DNA of 64,000 nt, taken from contig CAITUY010000047.1 in the NCBI GenBank assembly GCA_903895695.1, positions 10,397-74,396 of the forward strand. The letters run 5' to 3'. The notes beneath the pieces were generated by a model that worked only from the letters and a program-made list of their open reading frames with translations, was not told where the DNA came from and searched no databases. Positions 20,482-38,469 of this stretch are shown piece after piece. Positions within the stretch are counted from its first letter, which is position 1. Every line of letters begins with the position of its first letter. The position numbers and the translations under genes are program-made. Source of the stretch: an uncultured bacterium. GTDB taxonomy: Bacteria; Verrucomicrobiota; Kiritimatiellia; CAIKKV01; CAITUY01.

Positions 20482-20580
20482 AGATCTAATTCCAGATTCG
20501 CACCCGTTGAAACGGGGGTATGCGGTTTTCGATCTACGCAAGGCCGTGCGGCCGAGCGGTGTGAGGTGGTAGGCCATGGT
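20479..20580 (-). repeat. truncated copy of the RHS-core 3' leader repeat (MAYHLTPLGRTALRRSKTAYPRFNGCESG…) with no attached CT domain
   Basis: ~90% nucleotide identity to the first ~90 nt of the ten cassette ORFs, including the conserved ctgaccATG start context; it diverges after the GCESG codons into the regulator gene. Confidence 0.7.
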
Positions 20581-20592
20581 TACTGCGTCAGG

Positions 20593-21072
20593 TCATTTGG
20601 CAATTGTCGAGACGCGAGGTTGAGTGTCGTAGCGGTGGCCAACCACGATCACAACATCGTCTGGCGTGCCACCCCGTCCGTCCCCTCCAACTGACATCAG
20701 CACAACTTCGCCGTTTCGTCTCACGCAGACAATGGGTCTATTCCAACCATCCACGAACCTATCGGTGTCGACCGTAACTGTCTTTAGAAGCACTGCTACC
20801 TCCTGAGTCCCCGTGACAACCGAGTGGAGCACATTCGTATGCGTTCCAAAAATATAGTCGAGATATTCCAGGTTGCGGACAGTCCGATAGTCCGCACCCT
20901 CAAGTCGCCCACCGACGAGTCGTGTGTACCGAATCGCGCACCACAGAACGACCGTTACCACCACGACCGCGACACTAATCGCTTTACCGAATGTCGCATT
21001 CCGTCCCTGTAGTATCGTCATTGCAGAGTCCACTGAAGCACGCTTCTCACGGGCCGCATCCATCTGACACAC
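20593..21072 (-). CDS. putative immunity protein (membrane-anchored) for cassette 21155..21913
   Basis: Small ORF immediately downstream of a toxin cassette on the same strand; one TM helix (ISVAVVVVTVVLWCAI); no homology recognised. Confidence 0.4.
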   Translation of the reverse strand: MCQMDAAREKRASVDSAMTILQGRNATFGKAISVAVVVVTVVLWCAIRYTRLVGGRLEGADYRTVRNLEYLDYIFGTHTNVLHSVVTGTQEVAVLLKTVTVDTDRFVDGWNRPIVCVRRNGEVVLMSVGGDGRGGTPDDVVIVVGHRYDTQPRVSTIAK

Positions 21073-21154
21073 TCACGGGCACCCCTGCTCGCGCCGATGT
21101 GACCGGCCCGACCACCCTGCATGTCAAGCCTCTGCGGCAACCTTCATACCGCGA

Positions 21155-21913
21155 CTAGAACGTCTTGTCACCGTTCGTGACTGGCCACCACGATTTCGTA
21201 AACGTCCGTGCCCCTCGATTGTCACGGTATTGGGTGACTTCGACTCCCCATTTCACCATCTTTATGACCGCCCCGCTTTCAGTACCCTTCGTACAAATAA
21301 CCTGGGTAAACATGTCAGACTTAAAATGAACGACCGGTGGATCGCGCAGTCGCACTATAACGTCCGGCCTCGGGAAATACTCATACAGGCCAGGCATATC
21401 GAGCATCATGTGATAGAATCGTTGGGGCTTGTCACTGTCGTCGTAGTAAGTGCCGCCGTGGAGGTGGTCTTTGTAGTATTCGCCCGGCGTCGGTGCTCGG
21501 CCATCGTCCCAAAACTGATAGTCGCGGGCATCCTGTTTGAAGTCGGGAAACTCACAGACGCAATCACATTTCTCATGATCTAGTTGGGCGCTGATCACGA
21601 CAACCACGATGCCCTTATAGGCGGCTGACCTTTCCAAGCCGTCTATTATCCGAATTGTAAACTTGGAGGCATTCACGCACTGTCTCAACTTGTCACTCCA
21701 ACACCCCAGCATGTCCACGCCGTTTTCACAGTCATTTTCCGCAAACTGATAACAGTTTCTGCCCCCTGCTTCCCCAATCGGATCGCGACTCACCCAGCGT
21801 CCTAGTCCTGGCGAGAAGAAACGGAAACCAGATTCGCACCCGCTGAGACGGGGGTATGCGGTTTTTGGGGTACGCAAGGTCGTGCGGCCGAGGGGTGTGA
21901 GGTGGTAGGACAT
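21155..21913 (-). CDS. orphan RHS C-terminal toxin cassette (RHS core tail + variable CT domain)
   Basis: N-terminus MSYHLTPLGRTTLRTPKTAYPRLSGCESGFRFFSPGLGRWVSRDPIGEAGGRNCYQF…DMLGCW matches the last YD repeat and DPxGL tail of RHS cores; unique 190-aa CT. Confidence 0.65.
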   Translation of the reverse strand: MSYHLTPLGRTTLRTPKTAYPRLSGCESGFRFFSPGLGRWVSRDPIGEAGGRNCYQFAENDCENGVDMLGCWSDKLRQCVNASKFTIRIIDGLERSAAYKGIVVVVISAQLDHEKCDCVCEFPDFKQDARDYQFWDDGRAPTPGEYYKDHLHGGTYYDDSDKPQRFYHMMLDMPGLYEYFPRPDVIVRLRDPPVVHFKSDMFTQVICTKGTESGAVIKMVKWGVEVTQYRDNRGARTFTKSWWPVTNGDKTF

Positions 21914-22108
21914 GGTCGACTATTCTCGTGACGGCAACTGATGGGATCGGGCTGTCCCTGCGACGCTTCGTTCAATCCCTATTCTCTATTCTTGGGCCTT
22001 CCAACCCCCGTACCCCTATCTTCTGTCTTCTCGGGCTGACACTGGCGCCCCATTATTCCACTTTGTCACCCTTGTCAGCACCCGACCCCACTCGCGGGCT
22101 ACACAGTT

Positions 22109-22444
22109 TCACACGAAGACCAACTGAAACAGAAGGAATGCAAGAAGAAGCACCGCAGGGCACAACGGGGATGCCTGCTCGCGGCGATACAGGGACATCA
22201 ACCACGCGAAACTTCCTGCAATGATCGAAACTATGGCGACAACATGGGCAGACGCTCCTGAGTGTATCTCCTTCTCAATGGTCAAGTGCAATTGATTTCG
22301 CTCCACAGAGGCGAGCGTAACGGATCTTGCGGCAAGCAAGGCACCGGCAGAGTCGTGACGTTTGCCTTCAATATCCACGATTATCGCGATCAGCAACAGA
22401 CTACAGGCCACCATGAACAACGGCTTCACGGGTGGGCACCTCAT
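22109..22444 (-). CDS. putative immunity protein (polytopic small membrane protein) for cassette 22441..23139
   Basis: ATGA start/stop overlap with the upstream toxin; 3 predicted TM segments. Confidence 0.45.
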   Translation of the reverse strand: MRCPPVKPLFMVACSLLLIAIIVDIEGKRHDSAGALLAARSVTLASVERNQLHLTIEKEIHSGASAHVVAIVSIIAGSFAWLMSLYRREQASPLCPAVLLLAFLLFQLVFV

Positions 22445-23139
22445 TGGCCAATAAGGGCGTCACCACATGCCTCCTGCGCAGAGACAGCACAGGCTTCACG
22501 TCCCACCCCAATAGGACAGTAATGGTGTGCGATCTCGTGGATCAGCAGAGATGCTAGTCCACTGCTCCCCAATTCCTTGCACTGACTTGCACATACGCCT
22601 ATGCCAAACCCAGGCAGCGTCCAAGTTGGGAAACCCAAAATACACGGAATCATCCAGTCTCCGTGGCACGTGATCGTATATCCCGGTATCCAATCGGTAG
22701 ATCCCCCTCCGCCTCCCGAGAAATCGTGACCGTGATCCTCAAACCATTTCCTGCATTTCCCCTTTGGTATGGCAGCATCGACGATTTCCGCCGCCTGCCT
22801 CACTTCCGGACAGCACTTACAGCCGCCAAATTCATGCAGACCTTCTGGGTCTGTCAGTACAGTCGGTTGATTATGCACGAAGAGATACCGCGGCTCCTGC
22901 GACTGATGCTTGATCCGTTCTCGATCCTCTCGCCGGATTCCCCTGCTTCGCGTTTGCAGAAGTGCCTCATCCCCAATTGGGTCGCTGCTCATCCACCGCC
23001 CCATTCCTGGCGAGAAGAAACGGAAACCAGATTCGCACCCGCTGAGTCGGGGGTAAGCGGTTTTCGGGCTACGTTCGTACGCGTACTCCGGCGAGGTACG
23101 CAAGACCGTGCGTCCGAGGGGTGACAGGTGGTAGGGCAT
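22441..23139 (-). CDS. orphan RHS C-terminal toxin cassette with HExxH (zinc metallopeptidase-like) CT domain
   Basis: Leader MPYHLSPLGRTVLR…(8-aa insertion SPEYAYER)…GCESGFRFFSPGMGRWMSSDPIGD…DPEGL; the CT contains LIHEIAHHYCP (HExxH). Confidence 0.6.
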   Translation of the reverse strand: MPYHLSPLGRTVLRTSPEYAYERSPKTAYPRLSGCESGFRFFSPGMGRWMSSDPIGDEALLQTRSRGIRREDRERIKHQSQEPRYLFVHNQPTVLTDPEGLHEFGGCKCCPEVRQAAEIVDAAIPKGKCRKWFEDHGHDFSGGGGGSTDWIPGYTITCHGDWMIPCILGFPTWTLPGFGIGVCASQCKELGSSGLASLLIHEIAHHYCPIGVGREACAVSAQEACGDALIGQ

Positions 23140-23240
23140 GGTCAGTGCGTCAGTTCATTTGCCGATTATCAAGATGCTGGGTGGTCGGCCCAGGTTCAAT
23201 TCGGGAAGCCCGTCCGGTCATAAATGGTCGGCAACAGTTT

Positions 23241-24062
23241 CTACTCGCCCGCCCCTTTGATCGGGGACTGCTGGCCCGCCTCCCAATCGCCTCCTATCTC
23301 TGGAGGCACTTCAAATGACTCTACCGTTTCATTTGTCGTACCAAGTAGACTGCGAAAACGGTCACGCAACGCGTTCATTCCACCTGTTGTTTGATTGAGG
23401 TGCTCAAGAACCAAAGGCCAACTTACTTTTTCCTCATCCGACTTCGTCCAGTTCGTCACGCCAAGATCGAACACCGAATTCACCGGGTCATACGGTTCGG
23501 TATAGGCACAGAACCAATTTGTCACTGATGTTTGCCGCAAGAACAAGAGATACACCTCCCCCGAAACCTTCAAATGAAGCGAACTTGGAGGGTTGGCAAT
23601 GAGGGCCCTCCGAATCTCATTAGTAACTCCGCGCCTCAGATAGAACATATTTATCGCCTCGCCATCGCGGGCGTTCTTGAGACCTTCGATCACGTCAATC
23701 CTGGCCCTACACACTTCAAACGGGTATCCACGTAGCGTTGGATATGTCAGGAATATGCACCCCCCCGTCGCGCCAAGCCGCGCAACCCTCCCCACGACAA
23801 CTTTGTCTGCCCTCCGCACAAGTGTCTCCGCACTCTCGCGTTGCTCACCCCTCGCAAGTGCATACGAGCCACCCACGCCGTAGCAGACTACCCCAATCAC
23901 GAATGATGCCACCATGTGTCTTAGGCTTGCCATTTCGTCTATCATCGTCCTTGTCACTCTGGCCACATAGACCTGCCGCATGCAGGAAGTCTGTTCGATG
24001 CTAATGATCAGTAAATGCTTCTTGTCACTTGAGTTGGGGAGTTGCCACTGCAGCAGTTCCAT
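23241..24062 (-). CDS. putative immunity protein for cassette 24008..24742 (start likely internal, ~23981 or 23945)
   Basis: Directly downstream of the toxin cassette; hydrophobic segment MVASFVIGVVCYGVGG; the called N-terminus overlaps the toxin's 3' end. Confidence 0.4.
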   Translation of the reverse strand: MELLQWQLPNSSDKKHLLIISIEQTSCMRQVYVARVTRTMIDEMASLRHMVASFVIGVVCYGVGGSYALARGEQRESAETLVRRADKVVVGRVARLGATGGCIFLTYPTLRGYPFEVCRARIDVIEGLKNARDGEAINMFYLRRGVTNEIRRALIANPPSSLHLKVSGEVYLLFLRQTSVTNWFCAYTEPYDPVNSVFDLGVTNWTKSDEEKVSWPLVLEHLNQTTGGMNALRDRFRSLLGTTNETVESFEVPPEIGGDWEAGQQSPIKGAGE

Positions 24063-24742
24063 CTCGCCATCAGTGAGCGGTGGATGACATCACCAGAGGG
24101 AGGCGGCAATATTGGATCTTCATTTACTACCCCAGTGTCTCCACCTGAAGGCGAACGTGGATCGTGTGGCCAGTTTGATGTATCAAGCCTATCGTAGTAG
24201 GCGACAGTACCCGTATAGAGCACGTATCCTTTGGAGCATGGCAACCCTCCCGGATCGCTAAAGGCCCATGTATCACGGGGAGGGTCGTCCATGCTCGCAT
24301 CGACGATAGACCACGCCTCCCAATAGTGTTGGTCGGGATCATTGATGGGGTGACCTTGGCAGTCGGTAATTGAAGACGTCATGGTCATCTCTTGAACGAC
24401 GGAACCCCATAGAGGCGAAGGACCTCGCACTTTCCACAACACTGACCACGAAAAGTGGCCACAGTCATCCGGAATGAACACGAGGTCATCCACCGAAAAG
24501 GACAACGAAGTCCCCCCGAGAATAGTCTGCTTACCCGTTCTATCGCACTTTTGCACACTATTGTTCTCGCAGATTGAGAACAGGTTGAGTCCACCTCTTT
24601 CCCCAATCGGATCTCGCGACGCCCACCGCCCGATCCCCGGCGAGAAGAAACGGAAACCAGATTCGCACCCGGTGAGACGGGGGTATGCGGTTTTCGATCT
24701 ACGCAAGGCCGTGCGTCCGAGGGGTGTCAGGGAGTAGGTCAT
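24008..24742 (-). CDS. orphan RHS C-terminal toxin cassette
   Basis: Leader MTYSLTPLGRTALRRSKTAYPRLTGCESGFRFFSPGIGRWASRDPIGERGGLNLFSI…; unique CT. Confidence 0.65.
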   Translation of the reverse strand: MTYSLTPLGRTALRRSKTAYPRLTGCESGFRFFSPGIGRWASRDPIGERGGLNLFSICENNSVQKCDRTGKQTILGGTSLSFSVDDLVFIPDDCGHFSWSVLWKVRGPSPLWGSVVQEMTMTSSITDCQGHPINDPDQHYWEAWSIVDASMDDPPRDTWAFSDPGGLPCSKGYVLYTGTVAYYDRLDTSNWPHDPRSPSGGDTGVVNEDPILPPPSGDVIHRSLMARWNCCSGNSPTQVTRSIY

Positions 24743-24757
24743 GGTCAGCGCGTCAGT

Positions 24758-25207
24758 TCATTCGTCAATTGTGGAAACATGCCCCTGTGGCTTCCGATCT
24801 CTCAGGTTGACGCTCATCAGATAATCCGTAATTGCGGGATTATCGCCACTCCGGGAGAACTCTTGGACTCGATCCCAATACCTCGATCCTTCTACTATCG
24901 CAAGAAGCGAACTAGCACGTTTCGACTTAGCTTCAATGAGTATCTGATAGACAGGGACAAGCAACAATGTTGCCGTCTCACGTTCACGTCGGTCTTTAGA
25001 ACGCAGTTTCGTCGTCAAATACCGAATTCCAGAATCGTTCACAAATGGGAGCACAAGTCTCGCGACTTCTGCCGCGTCAATCTCACCAGGAGACTTCCTC
25101 AAGGACCAGTAGTCATTCGCTTCTGACATGGCCTTGTCGTATCGGTGGGCCACACACCCTGTCATCACAATCCACAGAGGCAAGAGCAAGAACAGCGTCA
25201 TCTTCTT
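24758..25207 (-). CDS. putative immunity lipoprotein for cassette 25227..25889 (the six-frame ORF extends artefactually to 25546)
   Basis: Probable start MKKMTLFLLLPLWIVMTGC (lipobox LxxC) ~20 nt downstream of the toxin stop. Confidence 0.45.
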   Translation of the reverse strand, partial: KKMTLFLLLPLWIVMTGCVAHRYDKAMSEANDYWSLRKSPGEIDAAEVARLVLPFVNDSGIRYLTTKLRSKDRRERETATLLLVPVYQILIEAKSKRASSLLAIVEGSRYWDRVQEFSRSGDNPAITDYLMSVNLRDRKPQGHVSTIDE

Positions 25208-25226
25208 CATGGGGATTGGGTTCCTA

Positions 25227-25889
25227 CTAATTTGAATTAGTATCGTCCCAATCAGTTCCCAAGTCCTCGAACGGCGTACAGGTTTCGCCTTGGGGGCAAC
25301 ACTGGCTAGACTCACCCGTGGACTCAAAATGGTAGTACTGTTTGCCCCCTGGCCCTTTACCCAGGGAGACCTTAGTTTTGCGGTAGTGCCTCCAGAAGAA
25401 CCAATAACGGAAACTAATCCACATTTCTTTCGCAGGAGACATGCAGATGCATTGGTCCCAACCATACGGAATGCCAGGCCCGCCCGGCGAGATCTCCCCT
25501 CTGAATGATCTTGTCTTGCACTGGCCATCGCCCCCGCAAGTCGCACCCTCGCTTAAGCAGTACCGCTGAAGAGGAGCATTGTTACATGCACAACCGTTAT
25601 CCTGCATCACGAGGCCAAGCAGATCCCAACGAGATTCTCCATTGTTACTGAGAAAATCATAATCATTCGCCCCTCTGGAAACGGTCATGGCGTCAACCCG
25701 TTTGCGGACGCTCTGAGCCACAAATGCAAATTTGAAGAAAGTGTGCTCCCACATCGGATCCCGGCTGCACCAGCGACCCACGCCCGGCGAGAAGAAACGG
25801 AAACCAGATTCGCACCCGTTGAAACGGGGGTATGCGGTTTTCGCGGTACGCAAGGCCGTGCGTCCGAAGGGTGTGAGGGAGTAGCTCAT
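25227..25889 (-). CDS. orphan RHS C-terminal toxin cassette (Cys-rich CT)
   Basis: Leader MSYSLTPFGRTALRTAKTAYPRFNGCESGFRFFSPGVGRWCSRDPMWE…; CT rich in Cys/Gly (…GCACNN…CGGDGQCKT…QCICMSP…CCPQGETC). Confidence 0.6.
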   Translation of the reverse strand: MSYSLTPFGRTALRTAKTAYPRFNGCESGFRFFSPGVGRWCSRDPMWEHTFFKFAFVAQSVRKRVDAMTVSRGANDYDFLSNNGESRWDLLGLVMQDNGCACNNAPLQRYCLSEGATCGGDGQCKTRSFRGEISPGGPGIPYGWDQCICMSPAKEMWISFRYWFFWRHYRKTKVSLGKGPGGKQYYHFESTGESSQCCPQGETCTPFEDLGTDWDDTNSN

Positions 25890-25899
25890 GGTCAGCGCC

Positions 25900-26574
25900 C
25901 TACCAACTTCTCAACCACAGGTTCGATAGGAAATAGTCAGAGACGATCCCGCGTTGCGTGTAGTACACAGCCAAATACCAACCCTCCAATGCAGACGCCC
26001 CTCCCTCCGGATGACGGTTCTGAACGACATCCGCGAAACTCACGCATGCTTTGCCGATCCCCTTTTCCAGGCCATAGTCATCGGCATCAGGACCGAAGAT
26101 CGTCTTGATAGTCGACATACGCGTTCCAACACGCAGCGACTTACTGTCTAGTAGCGAAACACAGAATGCCAGCTTGTCGTGGCGGTTGCTGCATCCCAGG
26201 TACTGCACCTTCAGTATCTCCGCGCTGGTGTCGGCCTTCGTGAGGTGACCGTATACCTCGCCTAAGACGGGCGCCTTACTTACCGCCCTGACGGCATGTA
26301 TGCCTTCCGGACTTTGAACCGTGTCTTGACCCGCTGCATGGCGGGTGAGTGCCGCGCAACCAAAGCCAATCATAATCATGGCCGCAACTCCGCATGCGTC
26401 CAGCGCACACCGAAGTATCGTTGAGGCCAAGTGACCGTCACTATCTCGGTCAGTTGTCATCAGGCGTAGGTATCTGGTGTTTGGGCGTTTGAATGCAGGT
26501 GGCTCCGTATATGGTGGCAGGAAAGCCGGGGGGCTTCGGCATCTTTCTGCATATGGTGAACCATTGCTCTTCAC
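25900..26574 (-). CDS. putative immunity protein for cassette 26450..27235 (start likely internal, ~26460)
   Basis: Downstream partner ORF; signal/TM-like stretch ILRCALDACGVAAMIMIGFGCAAL. Confidence 0.4.
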   Translation of the reverse strand: MKSNGSPYAERCRSPPAFLPPYTEPPAFKRPNTRYLRLMTTDRDSDGHLASTILRCALDACGVAAMIMIGFGCAALTRHAAGQDTVQSPEGIHAVRAVSKAPVLGEVYGHLTKADTSAEILKVQYLGCSNRHDKLAFCVSLLDSKSLRVGTRMSTIKTIFGPDADDYGLEKGIGKACVSFADVVQNRHPEGGASALEGWYLAVYYTQRGIVSDYFLSNLWLRSW

Positions 26575-27235
26575 CAGGTCTGGCCATTTGGTCGGCGTAT
26601 ATGTAATAGCCCTTCTGGATCAGGACGTAGTTCCAGTATGAGTCATTATCGGTTCTTGCACTCGTGATCGCGTGACAACTCACGCCACCATCTGGAAGCT
26701 TCTTCGGTTCCCCATCCTTCCATTTCCCCTGTTTGGCCCACGTCAGGCAGCATGGTTTCGCCACGAGTTTTTTGCATTTCGCGCAGTCTTTTCGCGCATC
26801 GTCCTCGGTAAGCCAACACTTCGTGTCAGGCCAGTTTTCCGGCCAGAACTTGCCATCCCCAGCAATGCAGGTAACCCCAACGCAACCACGATCAAGTTGC
26901 CGCTTTACGTACGCATCCACGCTGACACCGTGGTCTTTTAACCAGTCCTCAAACTGGTCTCGGTCCATGTTGATACACTGATCCACAGGCGGTTCACTCT
27001 GTTGCTCACTGGGTTCTGAGGCCAGCCCGAGACGATCACGATAGCCCAGAGGTTGGTTGCTGAGGCATATGTATCGATTCATGCCATGTCTGGCACTAAT
27101 CGGATCCCTCGACGCCCACCTTCCCATCCCTGGCGAGAAGAAACGGAAACCAGATTCGCACCCGGTGAGACGGGGGTATGCGGTTTTCGATCTACGTAAG
27201 GCCGTGCGTCCGAGAGGTGTGATGGAGTAGGCCAT
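26450..27235 (-). CDS. orphan RHS C-terminal toxin cassette (Lys/Cys-rich CT)
   Basis: Leader MAYSITPLGRTALRRSKTAYPRLTGCESGFRFFSPGMGRWASRDPISARHGMNRYICL…DRLGL. Confidence 0.65.
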   Translation of the reverse strand: MAYSITPLGRTALRRSKTAYPRLTGCESGFRFFSPGMGRWASRDPISARHGMNRYICLSNQPLGYRDRLGLASEPSEQQSEPPVDQCINMDRDQFEDWLKDHGVSVDAYVKRQLDRGCVGVTCIAGDGKFWPENWPDTKCWLTEDDARKDCAKCKKLVAKPCCLTWAKQGKWKDGEPKKLPDGGVSCHAITSARTDNDSYWNYVLIQKGYYIYADQMARPGEEQWFTICRKMPKPPGFPATIYGATCIQTPKHQIPTPDDN

Positions 27236-27296
27236 GGTCAGCGGGTTAGAGCGTTTGCGTCTTGCGAGAATTGGTGCAGTTGCCTGTTGGCTTTAT

Positions 27297-27743
27297 TCAA
27301 TGTTCGACTTCCGCATCACCAAGGCCGGCTCCCGGCCGCTTGGCAGCGACACCAAACAAGCGAAGCAGGCCAATAATCTTGCTGTCGCGGACTACCTCAT
27401 CATCGGCTTCGCCCATAGATAGAACGACTCCACTCAAACTGCTCAGGGCCAAGGCCCAGAAGTCCCTGCCGCGGAGCCCATGAAGCACTTTGTCCTCAAC
27501 AGGAATCGACGCTTTCCCATGCTGAATGTCATCTGCCAGGTACCTGACGAGCGTCTCAGTTGCAGCACCTTTCGTGACCCCTTGCCGAAGCTGGACTGTC
27601 ACATAAAACGCATGGTGCATCACAACGCACCTCTCCCCTGAAAACAAGTCGTGCGGAGCCTGAGGCCTGGCGCTGTAACACCCTCCAAGCAGCAGAGCGA
27701 AGAGCAAAGGCGTGCCTTGCCGCAACAACCTTTGTTGATTCAT
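27297..27743 (-). CDS. putative immunity lipoprotein for cassette 27740..28492
   Basis: ATGA overlap with the toxin stop; lipoprotein signal LLFALLLGGC. Confidence 0.5.
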   Translation of the reverse strand: MNQQRLLRQGTPLLFALLLGGCYSARPQAPHDLFSGERCVVMHHAFYVTVQLRQGVTKGAATETLVRYLADDIQHGKASIPVEDKVLHGLRGRDFWALALSSLSGVVLSMGEADDEVVRDSKIIGLLRLFGVAAKRPGAGLGDAEVEH

Positions 27744-28492
27744 AGCTCATCGACCCCCAGTTGCACGCTGAACCATCCGCGGGGGGTGCCCTTCCACCGC
27801 ATGTATCCTTTCTTCGGTATGCTACTGGCATTCCACGTCGCAGTACCGGCAAAGCCCCACCATGTCTGTACTGATGGTGCCTCTTCGACATAGTCATGCG
27901 CCTGAAACCAATACGTTTGCGGACTAACGGGACGCGTTCGACTCACATCGGCGTTGTGCGGATCATCAGTAAGCCACCATCCTCCGTAGAATCCTGGATT
28001 GGGCTTAGCCGAACCGTAGTCATCAGGCAGGACTATATCGTCATTAGGAGGCGAGTCAGAATCGTCGCGCAACTCTGCGCCTTGGTGCAGATGACAGCCG
28101 CTGACATCGCCCCCTGCGCTATGGGTCACAACCGCCTTGACGCCGACACCGAAATCCCAAAGATACCCTGGCCTATTCGGATCTGTCGGTTGATATTTCA
28201 ACTCTCTCGTTGCGCTTGTCCAAGAGAGGTCGATTCGACAGTTGCCGGGGTCTATCGCACAGATGCAACACGCCTTCCTCAGGCCCAGATAATCTAGCGC
28301 AGTGTCCGGGCAGTTCCTAATGAAGCAAAGCAAGTTGCCTCCGCCTTTCTCGCCGATCGGATCGCGGCTCATCCAGCGTCCGATCCCCGGCGAGAAGAAA
28401 CGGAAACCAGATTCGCACCCGTTGAAACGGGGGTATGCGGTTTTCGATCTACGCAAGGCCGTGCGGCCGAGGGGTGTGAGGGAGTAGGCCAT
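27740..28492 (-). CDS. orphan RHS C-terminal toxin cassette
   Basis: Leader MAYSLTPLGRTALRRSKTAYPRFNGCESGFRFFSPGIGRWMSRDPIGEKGGGNLLCF…DYLGL. Confidence 0.65.
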   Translation of the reverse strand: MAYSLTPLGRTALRRSKTAYPRFNGCESGFRFFSPGIGRWMSRDPIGEKGGGNLLCFIRNCPDTALDYLGLRKACCICAIDPGNCRIDLSWTSATRELKYQPTDPNRPGYLWDFGVGVKAVVTHSAGGDVSGCHLHQGAELRDDSDSPPNDDIVLPDDYGSAKPNPGFYGGWWLTDDPHNADVSRTRPVSPQTYWFQAHDYVEEAPSVQTWWGFAGTATWNASSIPKKGYMRWKGTPRGWFSVQLGVDEL

Positions 28493-28556
28493 GGTCAGCT
28501 ATTCTCGTGGAGGAAACCAATACGATCAGGATGTCCTGCGACGCTGCGCTGAATCC

Positions 28557-29060
28557 TCATTCTGTATTCTTGGGTCTGCCCCGTGACTGCGCTTCTTCTG
28601 AAGCCGCAGCACCAAACCCATTGCCCTCAAGTCCAGGCGCTGACGATGTCACCACAGTGACGATATCGTCTTCCGTTCCGAAAACACGGTCGGGACCCGC
28701 CGATGACACCGTGCAGACATTCTGACGGACTTGGCACCTGAAGGGAGACCCCCACGGATCGGGTAATATGGCTTCCTCACGGGGCATCAGATCGGAGAGG
28801 GACTCGGGCCACTGCCCATGTCGAGCATGGTAGTCCGCCGCCACGTCGCCCAGCCGTTTCACGTAGCGCAGCACGCCTTCTGCTGCCTCTCTATTCCGTT
28901 GCGCCCTGACTGCTCTCACTGCATCGGCACTCCACAACCCAACGAGCCCAATGACCAGACACGCAACTCCGATCAGAAGCACGACTCGGTGTCTATTGAG
29001 CCATAAATGGATGGTTCCGCCCGCAGGGTCTGCGCACGTTTTACTGTCGGCCATAGGCAT
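28557..29060 (-). CDS. putative immunity protein with GspG/type-II-pseudopilin-like fold (degenerate, no GFTLIE motif); six-frame ORF extends to 29198
   Basis: TM helix VVLLIGVACLVIGLVGLW, then …AEGVLRYVKRLGDVAADYHARHGQWPESLSDLMP…LPDPWGSPFRC…SSAGPDRVFGTEDDIV, which parallels the GspG signature (…Y.LDNG.YP…GL.AL…DPWGNPY…S.G.DG..GG.G.DADI). Confidence 0.4.
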   Translation of the reverse strand: MPMADSKTCADPAGGTIHLWLNRHRVVLLIGVACLVIGLVGLWSADAVRAVRAQRNREAAEGVLRYVKRLGDVAADYHARHGQWPESLSDLMPREEAILPDPWGSPFRCQVRQNVCTVSSAGPDRVFGTEDDIVTVVTSSAPGLEGNGFGAAASEEAQSRGRPKNTE

Positions 29061-29814
29061 CGTGTAGCATCCATTCGTCTTCCAGCTCCCCGAACACCGA
29101 GAAACTCGGGTCCTGAAACAAGTTTCTCTTCCATGCATAGAAGTTGAGCCACCGTACCCAGATCCACTTGTTTGCCGGGTTGCCATCAGGCAAAACATTG
29201 AACGTGTAATACTTCGCCATCTTGACCGTCATCTTGCACGACCCCTCACACTCACATCGACCCTGTGAGTCAGCACACCCGCATCGCCATTTACAGTCGG
29301 CGAACAGTGACACCTGCCAGTTCCCCGCGTACGCAAGGCCAAACAACGATACGGCTGCCGGCATTACATCATCGAACACCTCTGCCGAATGCGGTGGTGC
29401 GGGCAATCGGATATTCTCGATTGCGGCGCCCATGCATCGAAACCGTGTTCCCAAAGCCTTTTCTACCGTCAATCGCCAATCCTTCATGTGCCACGACGTC
29501 TTAAGGCGAGAAAGCACGTCGTCTGAAAGTCTCCCGCCTTCTGGGGCGAACGAGAAGTAGTTGATGAACATCTGCCAAGGACCATCGAATGTCCACTCGA
29601 CCAACCCTGCGGGGTCGGCCCTATCCGGCGAGTCATTGGCACAGAAAACATATGCGTCGAGTCCGCCCATCTCCTCAAGCGGATCGCGGCTGATCCAGCG
29701 TCCGAGTCCCGGCGAGAAGAAACGGAAACCAGATTCGCACCCGGCGAGACGGGGGTATGCGGTTTTCGATCTATGCAAGGCCGTGCGGCCGAGGGGTGTC
29801 AGGTGGTAGGGCAT
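29041..29814 (-). CDS. orphan RHS C-terminal toxin cassette (six-frame ORF begins at 29925; conserved start at 29814)
   Basis: Conserved leader begins at the internal Met: MPYHLTPLGRTALHRSKTAYPRLAGCESGFRFFSPGLGRWISRDPLEEMGGLDAYVF…DPAGL; Cys-rich CT (CKWRCGCADSQGRCECEGSCK). Confidence 0.6.
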   Translation of the reverse strand: MPYHLTPLGRTALHRSKTAYPRLAGCESGFRFFSPGLGRWISRDPLEEMGGLDAYVFCANDSPDRADPAGLVEWTFDGPWQMFINYFSFAPEGGRLSDDVLSRLKTSWHMKDWRLTVEKALGTRFRCMGAAIENIRLPAPPHSAEVFDDVMPAAVSLFGLAYAGNWQVSLFADCKWRCGCADSQGRCECEGSCKMTVKMAKYYTFNVLPDGNPANKWIWVRWLNFYAWKRNLFQDPSFSVFGELEDEWMLHDAYGRQ

Positions 29815-30137
29815 GGTGAGGGTCCAGGTTCGTACGGCCAGCGCACGGTTCCCGATCCATATGGTGAGGTTATTACAGCCCCTCGACGGAGGAACACCGT
29901 CGTCTTCCATGCAACGCTGTCCCACTCTGTTGCAGGATGATGGGCACTCAGACTCATGATCCCATTCACATTTTCACCGATAGTCACGCTACCATCGGGA
30001 TCGCCCTCCAACTCGGCCGCATTCGTACCAGGAAACGTTATGCTCTGAACCACTCCATACAGGCGACCCTCTGACATGACGCGGTCACCGACGCAGACAA
30101 CCTCTCCCGTATGATACCGGAAGCAATCGCGCTTCAC
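29799..30137 (-). CDS. putative immunity protein (small beta-rich) for cassette 30134..30847
   Basis: ATGA overlap with the toxin stop; homologous in outline to 30909..31151. Confidence 0.45.
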   Translation of the reverse strand: MKRDCFRYHTGEVVCVGDRVMSEGRLYGVVQSITFPGTNAAELEGDPDGSVTIGENVNGIMSLSAHHPATEWDSVAWKTTVFLRRGAVITSPYGSGTVRWPYEPGPSPCPTT

Positions 30138-30847
30138 GGTGCGACACCTCCGCCAAGGATTGGTTCAACCCAAGGCCCTTCTCCCGGCCACGGCGTATCT
30201 CCACACGTCACATCCAACGCCAATGACTGTCGCTTGCAGGCACATGGTTCTGTCGGGTGCGTCACAGGGAGTTGCACAACATAGGCGTGGTGCGTGTGCG
30301 TGCCCGGACACCCGTGCCCAGCGACAAAACATGTCCTGTTCATTGTGTATCCCGCGAGCGGGATACATGGCAGACAAAACGGCAGATGCGGGACGGTCTT
30401 TGTCTGAGTTACCGTTTGCGGCACGGAGTTCACACCTGTATTCATGCATTGACAGTCCCGTTCCCGGTAAACATCGTATGTCTCGGTATAGGTTCCCGTC
30501 CGCGTGTACACCAAGTATGTCACGCCGCCGGCAATGAGCGTGCCAGCAGCCACCCATGGACCCCATTCCGGCAATGTGACGCCTGCAAGAATCTCAGCAC
30601 AGATCTCCCCTATAGTTGGTATTGCGATTCCCGCCTGGCCCAAGGGATCAAGGAGGAATATGGGGGTGTTCTGAACGAACGCGTACCGGTTGACTCCGCC
30701 ACTCTCCGCAACCGGATCGCGCGACGCCCACCTTCCTAGCCCTGGCGAGAAGAAACGGAAACCAGATTCGCACCCGTTGAAACGGGGGTATGCAGTTTTC
30801 GATCTACGCAAGGCCGTGCGGCCGAGAGGTGTGAGGTGGTAGGCCAT
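30134..30847 (-). CDS. orphan RHS C-terminal toxin cassette (CT with hydrophobic segment; paralogous to 31175..31822)
   Basis: Leader MAYHLTPLGRTALRRSKTAYPRFNGCESGFRFFSPGLGRWASRDPVAESGGVNRYAF…DPLGQ; CT shares CLPCIP…H.H…C.CK…GP…GGG(V/I)AP* with the next cassette. Confidence 0.6.
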   Translation of the reverse strand: MAYHLTPLGRTALRRSKTAYPRFNGCESGFRFFSPGLGRWASRDPVAESGGVNRYAFVQNTPIFLLDPLGQAGIAIPTIGEICAEILAGVTLPEWGPWVAAGTLIAGGVTYLVYTRTGTYTETYDVYRERDCQCMNTGVNSVPQTVTQTKTVPHLPFCLPCIPLAGYTMNRTCFVAGHGCPGTHTHHAYVVQLPVTHPTEPCACKRQSLALDVTCGDTPWPGEGPWVEPILGGGVAP

Positions 30848-30908
30848 GGGTAGCTGCAGGCACCGCGCCCTGCCTGATCGTTCATTGCTGCTTCGCGTGA
30901 TTCATCAC

Positions 30909-31151
30909 TTAGGATTTCGGCCGCTTTGTTAGGCTATGATGGTGCCCAAATGGGTGTAGAACCAAAATGCCGTCCTCATACATGACCAGAAGACCTCCCG
31001 TGTCTTCACAGTCAAATGAGGCCGCCGATTGGGTGCCAGGCATGCATACCGCCTCAACTCGTCCCGGTCTCCCGTCAATCATCACAAGATCTCCGTTCCT
31101 CACAGATTCTTGCGAATCGCCGTATTTCGAACTGAGAGTGTCATCAGGCAT
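30909..31151 (-). CDS. putative immunity protein for cassette 31175..31822 (six-frame ORF extends to 31403 over the toxin 3' end)
   Basis: Likely start MPDDTLSSKYG…; …RNGDLVMIDGRPGRVEAVC… resembles …GEVVCVGDRVMSEGRLYGVV… in 29799..30137. Confidence 0.35.
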   Translation of the reverse strand: MPDDTLSSKYGDSQESVRNGDLVMIDGRPGRVEAVCMPGTQSAASFDCEDTGGLLVMYEDGILVLHPFGHHHSLTKRPKS

Positions 31152-31174
31152 TTCCGTTGCGTTGCTGAATGTTA

Positions 31175-31822
31175 CTAAGGCGCAATGCCTCCGCCCTGAG
31201 CAGGGCCGGCTTCCGGTGCCAAAACCCCAGGCAATGGGTCGGGCAGTACCTCTTTCCAGAAACACTTGCACCCTCCGACTGCCGGACTCTGCAACATCAC
31301 TAGCATGTGGGAATGCGGCGTGGGAATTCCGTTGTGGGCTGGCGAGGGCGGCAAGTCCACGCGATACGCAATGGACCCAACGACTGGTAGGCACGGCAGA
31401 CACCCTTGAGTTCTTCGTTTACAGCGGTCACATCTCTTCATTGCCTCCGCAATACCATCCGCTACGGCGTCCGCGAAACTTGCTGCGGCCGCTGCAATAT
31501 CGTGGAGTGTTTGTTGTCCTGCAGGCGATTGCGCCCAGGCTTCGGCGGTCACACACACCGCAATGGTCCCGATTACCAAGAGTACGACTGCGTCATCCGC
31601 TATTACAATTCGTCCATCCTTGTCGTTCTTATCCGTGGGGTTGTTCGACACGAAGCCATAGAGATTCCGCCCCCCGAGTTCTCCCATAGGATCGCGTGAA
31701 ATCCACCTCCCTGTTCCTGGCGAGAGGAAACGGAAACCAGATTCGCACCCGCTGAGTCGGGGGTATGCGGTTTTCCATCTACGCAAGTCCGTGCGTCCGA
31801 GGGGTGTCAGGTGGTAGGACAT
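31175..31822 (-). CDS. orphan RHS C-terminal toxin cassette (paralogous CT to 30134..30847)
   Basis: Leader MSYHLTPLGRTDLRRWKTAYPRLSGCESGFRFLSPGTGRWISRDPMGELGGRNLYGFVSNNPTDKNDKDG. Confidence 0.6.
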   Translation of the reverse strand: MSYHLTPLGRTDLRRWKTAYPRLSGCESGFRFLSPGTGRWISRDPMGELGGRNLYGFVSNNPTDKNDKDGRIVIADDAVVLLVIGTIAVCVTAEAWAQSPAGQQTLHDIAAAAASFADAVADGIAEAMKRCDRCKRRTQGCLPCLPVVGSIAYRVDLPPSPAHNGIPTPHSHMLVMLQSPAVGGCKCFWKEVLPDPLPGVLAPEAGPAQGGGIAP

Positions 31823-32220
31823 GGTTAGAGGGTAAGATCGTCCAGCGATATCAGTCTTGTTTCAGCGACGTTCTGCGATGCCATTTCGTCCAGCAACTAC
31901 CATCCCGGCCTCGCCCCCGACTGCGGTTCACGCTCCCGCCCCGTAGATTATGCGGCCGGTCGGGGCGCTCACTTCCGCCCCAGCCGCCGACAACTCCACC
32001 AGCCCCAACCACCGTTGAAATGTTCATCCGAACAGGTCCGTCGCGCCGACGCCACAACGATCAGTTCTGTTTAGGGTACGGGAGCGCGGCGGCGGAAAAG
32101 CGGCTGTTTTGTAGTAACCCATGGGACGAAGTCCTTATGGGTGGGATTCTAGGAAAGAGGGGGCACGGAAGAAAGGCAAATCAGGCAAAAAAGTGGGCAA
32201 AAAACGGGGAGGCGGAAACC

Positions 32221-32440: not shown

Positions 32441-32938
32441 TCACCATCTCTTCTGCACGTAGTCTACAGGATTAATGACCAGAAGCGCAACCGGCAAACG
32501 GCCAGCCTTGGACACGATCTCGTCATCACAGGTCACAAACCACGCTGCTTTCGCGTGTTCGGCAGCAGCAACGTGCAAGGCATCCTTGGCCGACAGCCCC
32601 GCCACGGCCTGAATCCGAGCCGCGGATATGCGAATGGGTTCTTCTGGGCCTATTCGGACGCGGCAGATTGCGGCAAGGCGGACGACTTCCTGTGCACGGT
32701 CAACGAAAGGACACACCCGGTTCTCGTCCTCGTGCATAAACGACCACGCCAATTCCACCTCACCGTTCTCGGCATCCTCGAAGATCTTCTCGCAGGCTTC
32801 CGCCTCCAAACGGATACGATGCTGCCGGGAGTCGTCAAACCCCCGCTGGAAGCAGTTGTAGTCGAGATAGATGAGTTCCGCCATGTCGAGTACCCCGTGC
32901 CGAACGTGGTTACGATAGTATGGACTCTTCCTGGTCAC
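32441..32938 (-). CDS. PIN-domain protein (VapC-like ribonuclease candidate); likely start MAELIYLDYN (~32881)
   Basis: N-terminal MAELIYLDYNCF… and acidic residues spaced as in PIN/VapC folds. Confidence 0.45.
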   Translation of the reverse strand: MTRKSPYYRNHVRHGVLDMAELIYLDYNCFQRGFDDSRQHRIRLEAEACEKIFEDAENGEVELAWSFMHEDENRVCPFVDRAQEVVRLAAICRVRIGPEEPIRISAARIQAVAGLSAKDALHVAAAEHAKAAWFVTCDDEIVSKAGRLPVALLVINPVDYVQKRW

Positions 32939-33896
32939 AAGCCTCTTTCTCCCTTGGATGGCACTTGCGGTGGGTCTCTTTGAGGTCGGTGATGGTGAGC
33001 TTGGCGTAGTGCTTGAGCGTCTCCAGCGACTCGTGGCCGAGCAGTTCCTTCACGTGGTACATGCCGGCCCCGGCCCGCAACAGCTCGGTCGTGCAACTGC
33101 GGCGGAAAGTGTGGGGCGTGACGTTGACGTCGATGCGGGCCTGTTCGGTCAGCCGGTGCACAAGTTTGAGGAAGACGCCGTACTTGACCCGCTCGCCCGC
33201 CGCGGTGACGAAGAGGGCCTGCTCGTCGCCCGTCGGGAATGCTGGCCTGACTCCTTTGACGTACCCTTCGAGGTAGTGCATGGCCGTGCGGCCGATCGGC
33301 ACCATGCGTTCCTTCTGGCCCTTGCCTTTGACGCGGGCCAGCCCGTGGGCGTAGTCGACGTCGCCCAGGTCCAGCCCCAGCAGTTCCGAGACCCGCGCCC
33401 CGCTCGAATAGACCAGTTCCAGCATGGCCCGGTTGCGGTAGCCCTCCGCCCCGTTGGTCGGCACCACGTCCAGCAGCCGCCGCACTTGCTCGTGGGTCAG
33501 CACGCTGCCCGGCAGGGTCTTGGGCTCCTTCACGTACTCGATGCCGTCGGACAACCGCGACTGGATATGGCCCTGCACGGCCAGGTACTTGAGGAACGAG
33601 CGCAGTTCCTGGACTTGCTTGTTGATGGTGCGGGGGTTGAGCGGCCGCCCCTTGCGGGTCCGCCGCCGGGACAAATGTCCCTGCCAGCGCTGGAGGTGGC
33701 TGGCCCGCAACAGGTCGGGCGAGTACACGCCCACCGTCACCCCGAGCCACTGCGCCCAGTTCCGCAGGTCGTTGTTGGCCTGCTTGCGCGTCCAGGCGCT
33801 GAAGTTGAGCGCGCCCAGGTGCCGCACGTATTCGTCCAGTAGTTCGAGGAAAGTCGTCATAGTCGCATCCTCACGATCCCGGTTTGCTCCGGGCAT
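32910..33896 (-). CDS. tyrosine site-specific recombinase (XerC/D-phage integrase family)
   Basis: C-terminal catalytic signature …VTPHTFRRSCTTELLRAGAGMYHVKELLGHESLETLKHYAKL (R…HxxR…Y); N-terminal SAM-like core-binding domain. Confidence 0.8.
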   Translation of the reverse strand: MPGANRDREDATMTTFLELLDEYVRHLGALNFSAWTRKQANNDLRNWAQWLGVTVGVYSPDLLRASHLQRWQGHLSRRRTRKGRPLNPRTINKQVQELRSFLKYLAVQGHIQSRLSDGIEYVKEPKTLPGSVLTHEQVRRLLDVVPTNGAEGYRNRAMLELVYSSGARVSELLGLDLGDVDYAHGLARVKGKGQKERMVPIGRTAMHYLEGYVKGVRPAFPTGDEQALFVTAAGERVKYGVFLKLVHRLTEQARIDVNVTPHTFRRSCTTELLRAGAGMYHVKELLGHESLETLKHYAKLTITDLKETHRKCHPREKEACDQEESILS

Positions 33897-34827
33897 GAAC
33901 CGCCTGCAATTCCGTGATCGTCAGGCGCAGGTACTGGGACAGGTGACTGAACGAGGCATGGCCGAGGAGCATCTGCAGGTCCACCGGGTGGGCGCCGCGG
34001 CGCAACATGTGCGTGGCGCAGGCCCGCCGCAAGCTGTGCGGCGTGATGCGCGTCTGCACGCCCGAGTCGCGTCCATGCCTCACGATGCCGAGCCGGATGG
34101 CCACATATCCGAGCGGCTTTCCATACTGCGTCACCCAGAGCTCAGGCGGCCTGCCGCCCGCGGCCGTCCTCTTCCCGACCTCGGCCTCGTACCGCCGCAG
34201 CCACTCCACCGCCTGGGCGCCCAGCGGCAGGACCCGCTCCCGCTCGCCCTTGCCCATCACGCGCACGGTCCCGTTCACCATGTCCACGTCCCGGACCATA
34301 AGCCGGGACAGTTCCTCGACGCGCATGCCCGTGCCGTAGGCCGTCTCCAGGATGGTCCGATCGCGCAGTCCCGTGTAGGTCGTGGTGTCCGGCGTCGCCA
34401 GCAGGCTCGTCATCTCCTCCTCGGTAGGCACCGGCATGATGGGCGACTGAATCTTGCGGATCACGATGCCCTCCGCCGGGTTGCAGAACACTTCCTGCGT
34501 CTGCTCCAGCCAGCGGAAGAACTGCTTGATGGCACGGATGAAAACCTCCACCGAGGCGGGCTTCCACTGCCGGTCCACCATGCCGGCGCGGTATTCCTCG
34601 ATGTCCGAGCGCGTCACGTCCATGGCCCGCACGATGCCCTTACCATCCAGGAACGCGCAGAACCGTTCCAGCGCCTGCGTATAGATCTCGACGGTCCGCC
34701 GGCTGTACCGCCGTGAGGCCACGCGCTCGGCGTAACGCCTGACGAGTACGGCTACACGACTACTGCTACGACTATGTGTTGCATCCATATGCGCTCCCCG
34801 CACCACTTTCGACCAGGTTATTGCCAT
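33871..34827 (-). CDS. tyrosine site-specific recombinase (second, overlapping the first)
   Basis: …ITPHSLRRACATHMLRRGAHPVDLQMLLGHASFSHLSQYLRLT; overlaps the downstream recombinase by ~25 nt, consistent with translational coupling. Confidence 0.8.
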   Translation of the reverse strand: MAITWSKVVRGAHMDATHSRSSSRVAVLVRRYAERVASRRYSRRTVEIYTQALERFCAFLDGKGIVRAMDVTRSDIEEYRAGMVDRQWKPASVEVFIRAIKQFFRWLEQTQEVFCNPAEGIVIRKIQSPIMPVPTEEEMTSLLATPDTTTYTGLRDRTILETAYGTGMRVEELSRLMVRDVDMVNGTVRVMGKGERERVLPLGAQAVEWLRRYEAEVGKRTAAGGRPPELWVTQYGKPLGYVAIRLGIVRHGRDSGVQTRITPHSLRRACATHMLRRGAHPVDLQMLLGHASFSHLSQYLRLTITELQAVHARSKPGS

Positions 34828-37147: not shown

Positions 37148-37157
37148 GTCGCCAACC

Positions 37158-37574
37158 CTAGGCGCGAATTTCCCAACGGGCCACGAAGTTTTGTAACGTA
37201 AGACCCACATCGCGCCAGACCCCACGCCAGTCGCGGATTCCCGCGATAACGACGTGTCGTAACGCAAAACCATCCAAGTCTCGGAACCTCACACCGACCG
37301 TGTTTTGACCGGCGCGATGAATTGGAAGCAGAATGTCCACCGTGAACGCCTTCCGCCTGTCCTGCCGCCAGTAGAACGGATGAAGCCGCCGCCAGGCCTG
37401 GCTGCGGTCGATGTCCTTCTTGAAGTGGTCGGGGTTCTTCCGCCGCCATTGCCGGCAGTTCTCCCGGTTACGCGCCCGCTGGCACACCCGACGCGGGCAG
37501 TACCGCTGGTGCCAGGCGTTGTGGGGTTCAGGCTGGAACAACTTCCGGCAATGCGGGCAGCGCAGCGGTTTCAT
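37158..37574 (-). CDS. small Zn-ribbon (CxxC…CxxxxC) DNA-binding-like protein
   Basis: MKPLRCPHCRKLF…YCPRRVC; basic; first gene of the element operon. Confidence 0.4.
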   Translation of the reverse strand: MKPLRCPHCRKLFQPEPHNAWHQRYCPRRVCQRARNRENCRQWRRKNPDHFKKDIDRSQAWRRLHPFYWRQDRRKAFTVDILLPIHRAGQNTVGVRFRDLDGFALRHVVIAGIRDWRGVWRDVGLTLQNFVARWEIRA

Positions 37575-37966: not shown

Positions 37967-38467
37967 TTAACGTCGCAGGCGATCTGCAAGGCGCGTTCTG
38001 ATGCTCTGCCATGTCTGCCGGTCCACGTTTCGCCTTGAGCCGGTTTCATCAATGGCGGTTAGTTCCGGGTGCCACACCGGACACATGATCCGAACGCCTT
38101 CGGGTGTGTTTGTGAAGTATAGATATGTGATTCTTAGTGAAGTGGCCCCATTGCTTGGTCCCACCCACGGAGCCTCGATCTTCTCGAATTGCGGACTGTT
38201 CGCTAGGGCACAGGAGAAAATCCACGTTCGATTCGTTGCAAGCGGGAGAAGGTCGGAAAGACTGGCGGGGCGGACGCCGTGCGCTTCTTCATACTGTCGG
38301 CAGAGTTCCCCTAAAGCCAGGGTATTCGCTGCGCAAAGTTGGTAGAGCGCGCCATGGGTGCTCCTCTCTCGCCGAATATACAGGCACTGCCCTATGGCGA
38401 ACCAGCACAGGACAGCAAACACAAAGACGGACAAGAGCGACTTGATGACGGACGATGGAGAAGGCAT
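37967..38467 (-). CDS. putative immunity protein, pseudopilin(GspG)-like, for cassette 38470..39270
   Basis: Starts 3 nt after the toxin stop; N-terminal TM LLSVFVFAVLCWFAIG; shares …Y..HG..P.SLSDL(L/M)P with 28557..29060. Confidence 0.4.
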   Translation of the reverse strand: MPSPSSVIKSLLSVFVFAVLCWFAIGQCLYIRRERSTHGALYQLCAANTLALGELCRQYEEAHGVRPASLSDLLPLATNRTWIFSCALANSPQFEKIEAPWVGPSNGATSLRITYLYFTNTPEGVRIMCPVWHPELTAIDETGSRRNVDRQTWQSIRTRLADRLRR

Positions 38468-38469
38468 CG

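Follow-up and report, generated by a model that had tools for sequence, protein, structure and literature searches.

A probable orphan rhs-CT cassette encoding a predicted minimal zincin toxin and a putative membrane immunity partner in an uncultured Kiritimatiellia bacterium

We analyzed a stretch of 64,000 nucleotides (nt), referred to as the window, from contig CAITUY010000047.1 (positions 10,397 to 74,396, assembly GCA_903895695.1) of an uncultured bacterium of the Kiritimatiellia. The element under study is an open reading frame (ORF) on the minus strand, 22441..23139, together with the small ORF that follows it, 22109..22444. The original prediction, made from the sequence alone, had placed here the C-terminal toxin (CT) domain of an rhs cassette with a metallopeptidase-like HExxH motif and a small membrane protein as its partner. 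The coordinates proved exact in the ORF list and the sequence: the toxin ORF starts with the ATG at 23139, ends with a TGA stop at 22441-22443 and encodes 232 amino acids (aa), of which 12 are cysteines and 10 are histidines. The peptide LIHEIAHHYCP is present in the product, HEIAH occupying residues 201-205 (nt 22525-22539), and the toxin stop shares an ATGA overlap with the start of the partner at 22444. The features of the locus are as follows, with the evidence for each in brackets.

22441..23139, minus strand: probable orphan rhs-CT toxin ORF, 232 aa (ORF list, sequence)
22972..23139, minus strand: head, aa 1-56, degenerate 3' end of the Rhs core, ..YHLSPLGRT..AYPRLSGCESGFRFFSPGMGRWMSSDPIG (repeat families D1-D3, alignments A1 and A2, TIGR03696)
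22837..22971, minus strand: linker, aa 57-101, DEALLQTRSRGIRREDRERIKHQSQEPRYLFVHNQPTVLTDPEGL, ending in DPEGL, the Rhs DPxGL motif (same linker in homologous Rhs proteins)
22837-22851, minus strand: DPEGL, aa 97-101 (sequence)
22444..22836, minus strand: toxin domain, aa 102-232, 131 aa, predicted minimal zincin with ten paired cysteines (alignment and model)
22525..22539, minus strand: HEIAH (H201, E202, H205), putative metal-binding and catalytic motif on a long helix (conservation; helix 83-106 of the model)
22495..22497, minus strand: Glu215, candidate for the third metal ligand, where the last helix begins (conservation)
22109..22444, minus strand: putative cognate immunity gene, 111 or 106 aa, three transmembrane (TM) segments (hydropathy, synteny)
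20492..31866, minus strand: array of nine toxin/partner cassettes and one further head, truncated, at 20577 (ORFs, repeats, GC content)

Directly 5' of the toxin ATG, stops occur in all three frames, and the ORF contains no full-length Rhs shell. Given its length of 232 aa and these upstream stops, we therefore regard the ORF as an orphan cassette and not as an Rhs protein.

An exhaustive HMMER search of 1.84 billion representatives identified 77 with E ≤ 1e-3, of which 50 had E ≤ 1e-10, and the matched domain was always C-terminal. From this search, an alignment (A3) of 60 homologues with 32-59% identity to the query was built. H201 and E202 are invariant in it (60/60), H205 is kept in 59 of the 60 sequences and H206 in 53. 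Position 215 is Glu in 57 sequences and Asp in the remaining three, which makes E215 the likely third metal ligand as judged from the alignment. The lack of such a ligand would have spoken against the original prediction; conservation offers a candidate. A word-indexed search of 5.8 billion proteins returned only the identical protein when queried with the single sequence and only seven proteins when queried with the alignment. No Pfam or NCBIfam model matched the toxin at threshold, a scan of viral contigs revealed no relatives of it, and none of the family hits is a named or characterised member.

The comparison with zincin profiles gave a mixed outcome. In the kind of profile search that the original prediction had proposed, no known toxin family was recovered: the Pfam models of Tox-MPTase2-5, Peptidase_M91 (HopH1/NleD) and the ALF-like families did not match the window protein or any of the 60 members at E ≤ 1. 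A broader affinity to zincins is reflected in weak sub-threshold matches. SprT-like (PF10263) was found below threshold in 21 of the 60 members (best E 5e-4; 17.6 bits against a cutoff of 25.6 in P0067), and further sub-threshold matches across members were to Aminopep, Zincin_1, Aspzincin_M35, M76, eCIS_core and others. To our knowledge, there is no Pfam model for Tox-MPTase1, and Zhang et al. 2012 provide no alignment of this family in their supplement. The toxin family is thus one without a Pfam or NCBIfam model and stands apart from the available profiles, Tox-MPTase1 lying outside this comparison.

When AlphaFold2 was supplied with the 60-sequence alignment, the toxin domain was modelled with a predicted local distance difference test score (pLDDT) of 90.8 and a predicted template modelling score (pTM) of 0.86; the single-sequence prediction (pLDDT 53) was unreliable and was not used. 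The model begins with helices, continues with a small sheet and a long helix that bears the HExxH motif (83-106, domain numbering), and closes with a helix starting at E215. Among its fold neighbours, deuterolysin and Wss1 scored 8.3, YbeY 7.5-7.8, peptidyl-Lys metalloendopeptidase 7.4, ERAP1 and other M1 aminopeptidases ~7.2, projannalysin, proabylysin and selecase 6.6-6.8, neprilysin 6.7 and Spartan 5.7, followed at lower scores by BlaR1, BepA, matrix metalloproteinases, anthrax lethal factor and botulinum neurotoxin (BoNT) type A. Foldseek found no match at E ≤ 0.001 in the PDB or BFVD, the top PDB entry being selecase and those of the viral library SprT/IrrE-like proteins. In a profile search of PDB sequences, proabylysin was matched weakly (E = 0.29) over the HExxH helix and the preceding strand. 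The model shows an alpha/beta fold, a sheet preceding the active-site helix and likeness to solved zincins. Structure prediction, which had been suggested as a check on the motif, accordingly yielded a zincin-like fold, and on this model the toxin domain would be a minimal zincin.

Ten of the cysteines co-occur in pairs in the 60-sequence alignment: C208/C217 (phi 1.00), C166/C183 (0.90), C110/C187 (0.82), C107/C158 (0.72) and C129/C225, both of which are (nearly) invariant. The C208/C217 pair brackets E215. Since cysteines are lost in pairs and not in fours, the pattern points to disulfides, unlike that of Cys4 metal sites. Five disulfides would in turn argue that the toxin acts in the periplasm or extracellularly.

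The product of the partner gene had been described beforehand as a small polytopic membrane protein, and three hydrophobic segments in the Kyte-Doolittle profile (aa ~5-27, 62-86 and 90-111) agree with this description. The start of the gene is ambiguous between the ATG at 22444 (111 aa) and the GTG at 22429 (106 aa); the latter fits the N-terminus of the closest partner homologue (L009, MKPFY..) and is also the start called on metagenome contig L001, which is identical. Among 23 related metagenome loci, 21 include downstream sequence, and each of these 21 has a small ORF that begins -25 to +132 nt from the stop of the toxin and for which one or more TM segments are predicted. In nine of these loci (L003, L004, L007, L008, L009, L010, L011, L014 and L017) it is homologous to the partner in the window, by direct phmmer search for L009 (1e-33) and by iteration within the small set for the other eight. 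The conserved downstream partner that the original prediction had asked for is hence found. The nine homologues share a basic N-terminus, TM1, a loop of ~35 aa, TM2, R-R-E and a TM3 that ends in ..L-L-L-Q-F-V-F-V. Other subclades carry partners of 122-132 aa with three TM segments (L012, L013, L016, L018, L019 and L020), an N-terminal anchor followed by a soluble domain of ~120 aa (L021 and L024), or one of two further types, and every type is membrane-anchored. Pfam contains no family for the partner, and NCBIfam gave no match above threshold either. According to the positive-inside rule, with R2/K7 and the RRE loop in the cytoplasm, the TM1-TM2 loop would face the periplasm. Most likely, the product of 22109..22444 is the cognate immunity protein, a reading to which hydropathy and synteny both point.

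The head connects the cassette to Rhs proteins. Set against genuine Rhs proteins with the same toxin, it corresponds to a shortened last YD repeat plus core tail (Y-E-Y-x-P-F-G-E...R-Y-Y-x-P-x-x-G-R-W-x-S-R-D-P). TIGR03696 (Rhs_assc_core) matches it with E = 3e-7 and 30.9 bits, just under the cutoff of 32.5 bits because of insertions, and matches sibling cassettes above the cutoff with 41.4 and 45.7 bits. The 9-aa insertion SPEYAYERS (27 nt) is private to this head and occurs in no other copy. The end of the TccC3/YenC2 core is weakly matched by the head, this Rhs core tail being the sole match of the PDB sequence search. Across the array, the head forms a repeat of ~150 nt in nine copies, M-x-Y-x-L-T-P-L-G-R-T-..-K-T-A-Y-P-R-L-x-G-C-E-S-G-F-R-F-F-S-P-G-x-G-R-W-x-S-R-D-P, whose DNA runs ATGGCCTACCACCTCACACC...TTCTTCTCGCC. 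The copies are ~80-90% identical among cassettes. Third codon positions are nearly as well kept as first positions (identity 0.79 versus 0.85), which indicates that the heads are homogenised at the DNA level.

The sequence between head and toxin domain is likewise shared with Rhs proteins. D..GL stands directly before the Cys-rich domain in the homologues too, in the place of DPEGL, and in the Rhs proteins of L003, L004, L007, L008, L009 and L010 the closest CT homologues have the extended linker DE.F....R.R....RERS..P.YLFV.N.P....D..GL in front of them. As this linker is common to the closest homologues, the exchanged module extends from the R-D-P-I-G-D-E region through the immunity gene. RHS_repeat was detected in nine of the ten longest homologues scanned (P0025, P0023, P0079, P0083, P0050, P0037, P0051, P0038 and P0067). 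In metagenome loci, Rhs core sequence lies immediately 5' of the domain, and the toxin ORFs of L004, L005, L010 and L018 range from 947 to more than 2114 aa.

The 5' boundary of the nine cassettes is uniform, lying ~10 nt before the in-frame ATG. This is unusual, as orphan rhs cassettes are normally cut at varied points. In three copies, the upstream homology is ~25 nt longer and contains TGA in all three frames (TGAACTGACGCxCTGACC-ATG), and 32 nt, GGGTGCGAATCTGGTTTCCGTTTCTTCTCGCC, do not vary at all among the heads (9/9). We considered and rejected the head as a tRNA fragment, a known RNA or an attC-like hairpin for the nearby tyrosine recombinases: it yielded no tRNAs and no Rfam matches, and folding (z-scores of -0.22 to +0.95) revealed no covarying pair, hairpin or attC-like structure. 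The only match in a contig scan with the cassette heads, located in non-coding DNA of a metagenome-assembled genome of the Planctomycetia (L002), is due to chance. Short secreted forms without the Rhs shell were seen in other metagenomes, namely L015 976-1686, which carries the same zincin CT, and protein P0007, which carries another CT. Both combine a Sec-type signal peptide with an Rhs tail of ~40 aa (..FYNPQTGRWLSRDPIGE..), and the tail, being retained, may itself be functional.

The cassette belongs to an array of nine similar minus-strand genes with ATGs at 21913, 23139, 24742, 25889, 27235, 28492, 29814, 30847 and 31822, each followed by a small ORF. The GC content of the array is 53-58%, compared with ~65% in the rest of the window. 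Taken together, we consider it probable that 22441..23139 and 22109..22444 make up a displaced, orphan rhs-CT/immunity module, that the array of nine to which it belongs was acquired horizontally, and that this module encodes a disulfide-bonded zincin toxin with membrane immunity. The initial interpretation of a metallopeptidase-like rhs-CT with a membrane partner is supported by this analysis.

None of the CTs or partners of the ten cassettes (20593-31403 and 37967-39270) is matched by Pfam, and NCBIfam and Pfam scans of the siblings and their partners gave nothing above threshold. The cysteine content of all ten CTs is 3.2-5.5%. Among the cassette partners, most have either a lipoprotein signal (24758.. 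MKKMTLFLLLPLWIVMTGC; 27297.. LLFALLLGGC) or a TM segment at the N-terminus. The C-terminus of the partner 28557..29198 weakly resembles a type II secretion system pseudopilin G (E = 0.15), and 20593..21072 is similar by eye. The array as a whole appears to be directed at the cell envelope. The neighbouring cassettes 30134-30847 and 31175-31822 encode paralogous CTs with a hydrophobic stretch each and the similar ends ..GGGVAP and ..GGGIAP; these represent a distinct, possibly membrane-active toxin type.

At the downstream edge of the low-GC island lies a truncated tenth head (ATG 20577), the homology of which ends at ...GCGAATCTGG. It runs in frame into the beginning of a GntR/LacI-type regulator gene (19396-20613 in the window), the true start of which is probably M33 or M36. 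A block of 66-69% GC (32441-37574) contains a PIN-domain gene (32441..32938), two adjacent tyrosine recombinase genes (32910..33896 and 33871..34827), an 833-aa ORF without a Pfam match (34772..37273) and a Cys/His-rich ORF of 138 aa. This block seems to be an integrative element in its own right, lying between the array and another orphan toxin/partner pair (38470..39270 and 37967..38467). Farther away, 45972-51929 encodes a secreted glycine-rich repeat protein of 1985 aa with Gly_rich_2, G8 and InlB B-repeat-like domains, which is not an Rhs protein and seems unrelated to the array.

We propose the following mechanism. The head, a degenerate last YD repeat with the core tail, would allow recombination into a full-length rhs gene elsewhere, by which the cassette would be activated. 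The C-terminal region of Rhs proteins is released by autoproteolysis, and once fused to an Rhs shell, the domain of ~131 aa (aa 102-232) would be freed after DPEGL. It may then fold with five disulfides (C107-C158, C110-C187, C129-C225, C166-C183 and C208-C217). As these would lock the fold, the toxin would be active only in an oxidising compartment, either the periplasm of the target cell or the extracellular space. Zn2+ would presumably be bound by H201, H205 and E215, with E202 acting as the general base in the hydrolysis of a peptide bond of an envelope substrate, while the co-transcribed inner-membrane partner with its three TM segments would protect the producer. A more specific version of this proposal, put forward tentatively, is that the family might represent an undescribed, minimal (~125-aa) five-disulfide class of zincin toxins that folds oxidatively in the periplasm of the victim and is neutralised from the inner membrane by a three-TM protein.

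Several observations weigh against an active zincin toxin with this partner. Three fragmentary homologues outside the alignment (P0042, P0072 and P0076) do not have the second His. The CT closest to that of the window (64% identity), on a 1774-aa Rhs protein (L005, 6001-6732; also in L006), is accompanied by a different three-TM protein of 93 aa, which is not detectably homologous to the partner in the window; the type of immunity can therefore change within one subclade of closely related toxins. The convergence of H201, H205 and E215 and the proximity within the cysteine pairs are predictions drawn from conservation and co-occurrence. Moreover, neither a full-length parent rhs gene nor a secretion system was seen in the 64-kb window, nor a sigma-70-like promoter upstream of the cassette, and its expression in this genome is therefore unproven. 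The missing rhs gene and promoter would also suit a decaying relic, that is, an orphan which is never expressed or recombined and whose small ORF no longer confers immunity, as would the private 27-nt insertion in the head and the mobile element with two tyrosine recombinases that separates the array from the further orphan. Yet both ORFs are intact, all catalytic residues and the ten paired cysteines are retained relative to the 60 homologues, the partner keeps the architecture of its family, and the heads are similar at the DNA level, as expected of recombination-competent cassettes. We thus judge decay to be improbable, and it would bear on the present-day use of the module, not on what the module encodes.

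Slightly less remote than decay, albeit still unlikely, is a zincin fold that serves a chemistry other than proteolysis, such as RNA cleavage as in YbeY, amidase activity on cell-wall or lipid-linked substrates, or hydroxylation dependent on alpha-ketoglutarate and iron as in HExxH peptide beta-hydroxylases. The Glu that follows the first His acts as general base in zincin hydrolases and is invariant in 60/60 sequences, whereas the YbeY site is of the H-x-H-x-x-x-H type without that Glu. In addition, most fold neighbours and all recurrent sub-threshold Pfam matches are peptidases, and a disulfide-locked domain with membrane-anchored partners speaks against a cytoplasmic RNA target. A chance HExxH in an unrelated Cys/His-rich fold, such as a zinc ribbon or a knottin-like toxin, is the least credible of the alternatives and can be considered refuted. 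On its own the motif is weak evidence, as it arises in 2.6% of shuffles of this His-rich 232-aa protein and six times in the six-frame ORFs of the window, and no database family matches significantly. Its conservation across the 60 aligned homologues, together with the predicted fold, excludes chance occurrence, which had been named at the outset as one case that would undo the prediction. The zincin toxin with a membrane immunity partner hence remains our preferred interpretation.

Comparison with solved zincins underlines what is particular about the domain. In Wss1, zinc is bound by the two His of HExxH and a third His at +6 from the second, whereas here +6 is Gly211 and the candidate Glu215 follows at +10 after H205. 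Wss1/SprT (Spartan), proabylysin, projannalysin and selecase are cytoplasmic or nuclear and not disulfide-rich, and none is a toxin with an immunity partner. Aspzincins take their third ligand, an Asp, from a GTxDxxYG motif located on a later helix. This motif is absent from the domain in the window, and deuterolysin and peptidyl-Lys metalloendopeptidase (M35) are larger (167-177 aa), secreted fungal or bacterial enzymes that are not part of cassettes. With regard to its genetic organisation, the module is similar to the orphan rhs-CT/rhsI modules that lie downstream of rhs genes in enterobacteria (the standalone toxin cassettes of Zhang et al. 2012), which are 5'-truncated, comprise core DNA, CT and immunity gene, and occur in low-GC arrays. 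It differs from them in that the nine cassettes of the window share one 5' boundary and an in-frame ATG and have no adjacent parent rhs gene. Activation of orphan rhs modules by recombination reportedly occurs in Salmonella.

Zincin-like CTs of RHS toxins were described by Zhang et al. 2012 as Tox-MPTase1-5, HopH1/NleD (M91) and ALF-MPTase, some of them in planctomycetes (PMC3482391). The domain in the window resembles these Tox-MPTase, HopH1 and ALF domains in position, size and motif; they are small alpha+beta metallopeptidase domains with HExxH, found at the C-terminus of RHS-repeat proteins and exchanged as cassettes. In contrast, the table of that study lists no immunity protein for the Tox-MPTase and HopH1 families and Imm-SuFu for ALF-MPTase (PMC3482391), while here a conserved membrane partner is present, and the five-disulfide signature of the family in the window is not described there. 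The best functional analogy for the proposed mechanism may be the Tpe-Tpi pairs, i.e. the C-terminal metallopeptidase of VgrG2b with PA0261 in P. aeruginosa and Tpe1/Tpi1 in A. baylyi, which are zinc-metallopeptidase effectors toxic in the periplasm (Wood et al. 2019, PMC6899460). Their immunity proteins are located in the envelope, being periplasmic, outer membrane lipoproteins or, by homologue, anchored in the inner membrane (PMC6899460), and some delivered toxins need DsbA of the prey, as cited there. The toxin in the window would share with this scheme a periplasmic metallopeptidase, envelope immunity and Dsb-dependent folding. Furthermore, the antibacterial activity of the Rhs effector SED_RS06335 of Salmonella Dublin lies in a C-terminal HExxH M91 domain (PMC13556075). 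That domain is larger and BoNT-like and belongs to a full-length Rhs protein linked to a type VI secretion system, whereas the one described here is an orphan cassette without an M91 match. Zincin Rhs toxins and metallopeptidase effectors acting in the periplasm are thus already known, and the cassette adds to them a zincin family and an immunity family that both lack models.

Metallopeptidase toxins constitute a minority among the payloads of Rhs and other polymorphic toxins, in line with the original view that protease-type CTs are less common, and few of them have known targets. With its compact scaffold, the HExxH motif plus Glu, the disulfide pattern and the membrane partner, the family offers a tractable system for seeking a new envelope target of interbacterial proteases, and it allows asking how a three-helix membrane protein blocks a soluble protease. 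For the annotation of Rhs cassettes in metagenomes, it supplies an additional family model; the general picture of Rhs proteins is unchanged, and nothing found here contradicts it. If the proposal of a disulfide-locked zincin neutralised from the inner membrane is true, a membrane-proximal substrate would be implied, for example a lipoprotein tether, a precursor peptide linked to a lipid or a loop that an inner-membrane protein exposes to the periplasm, and the underlying toxin-immunity logic would be new for Rhs proteases.

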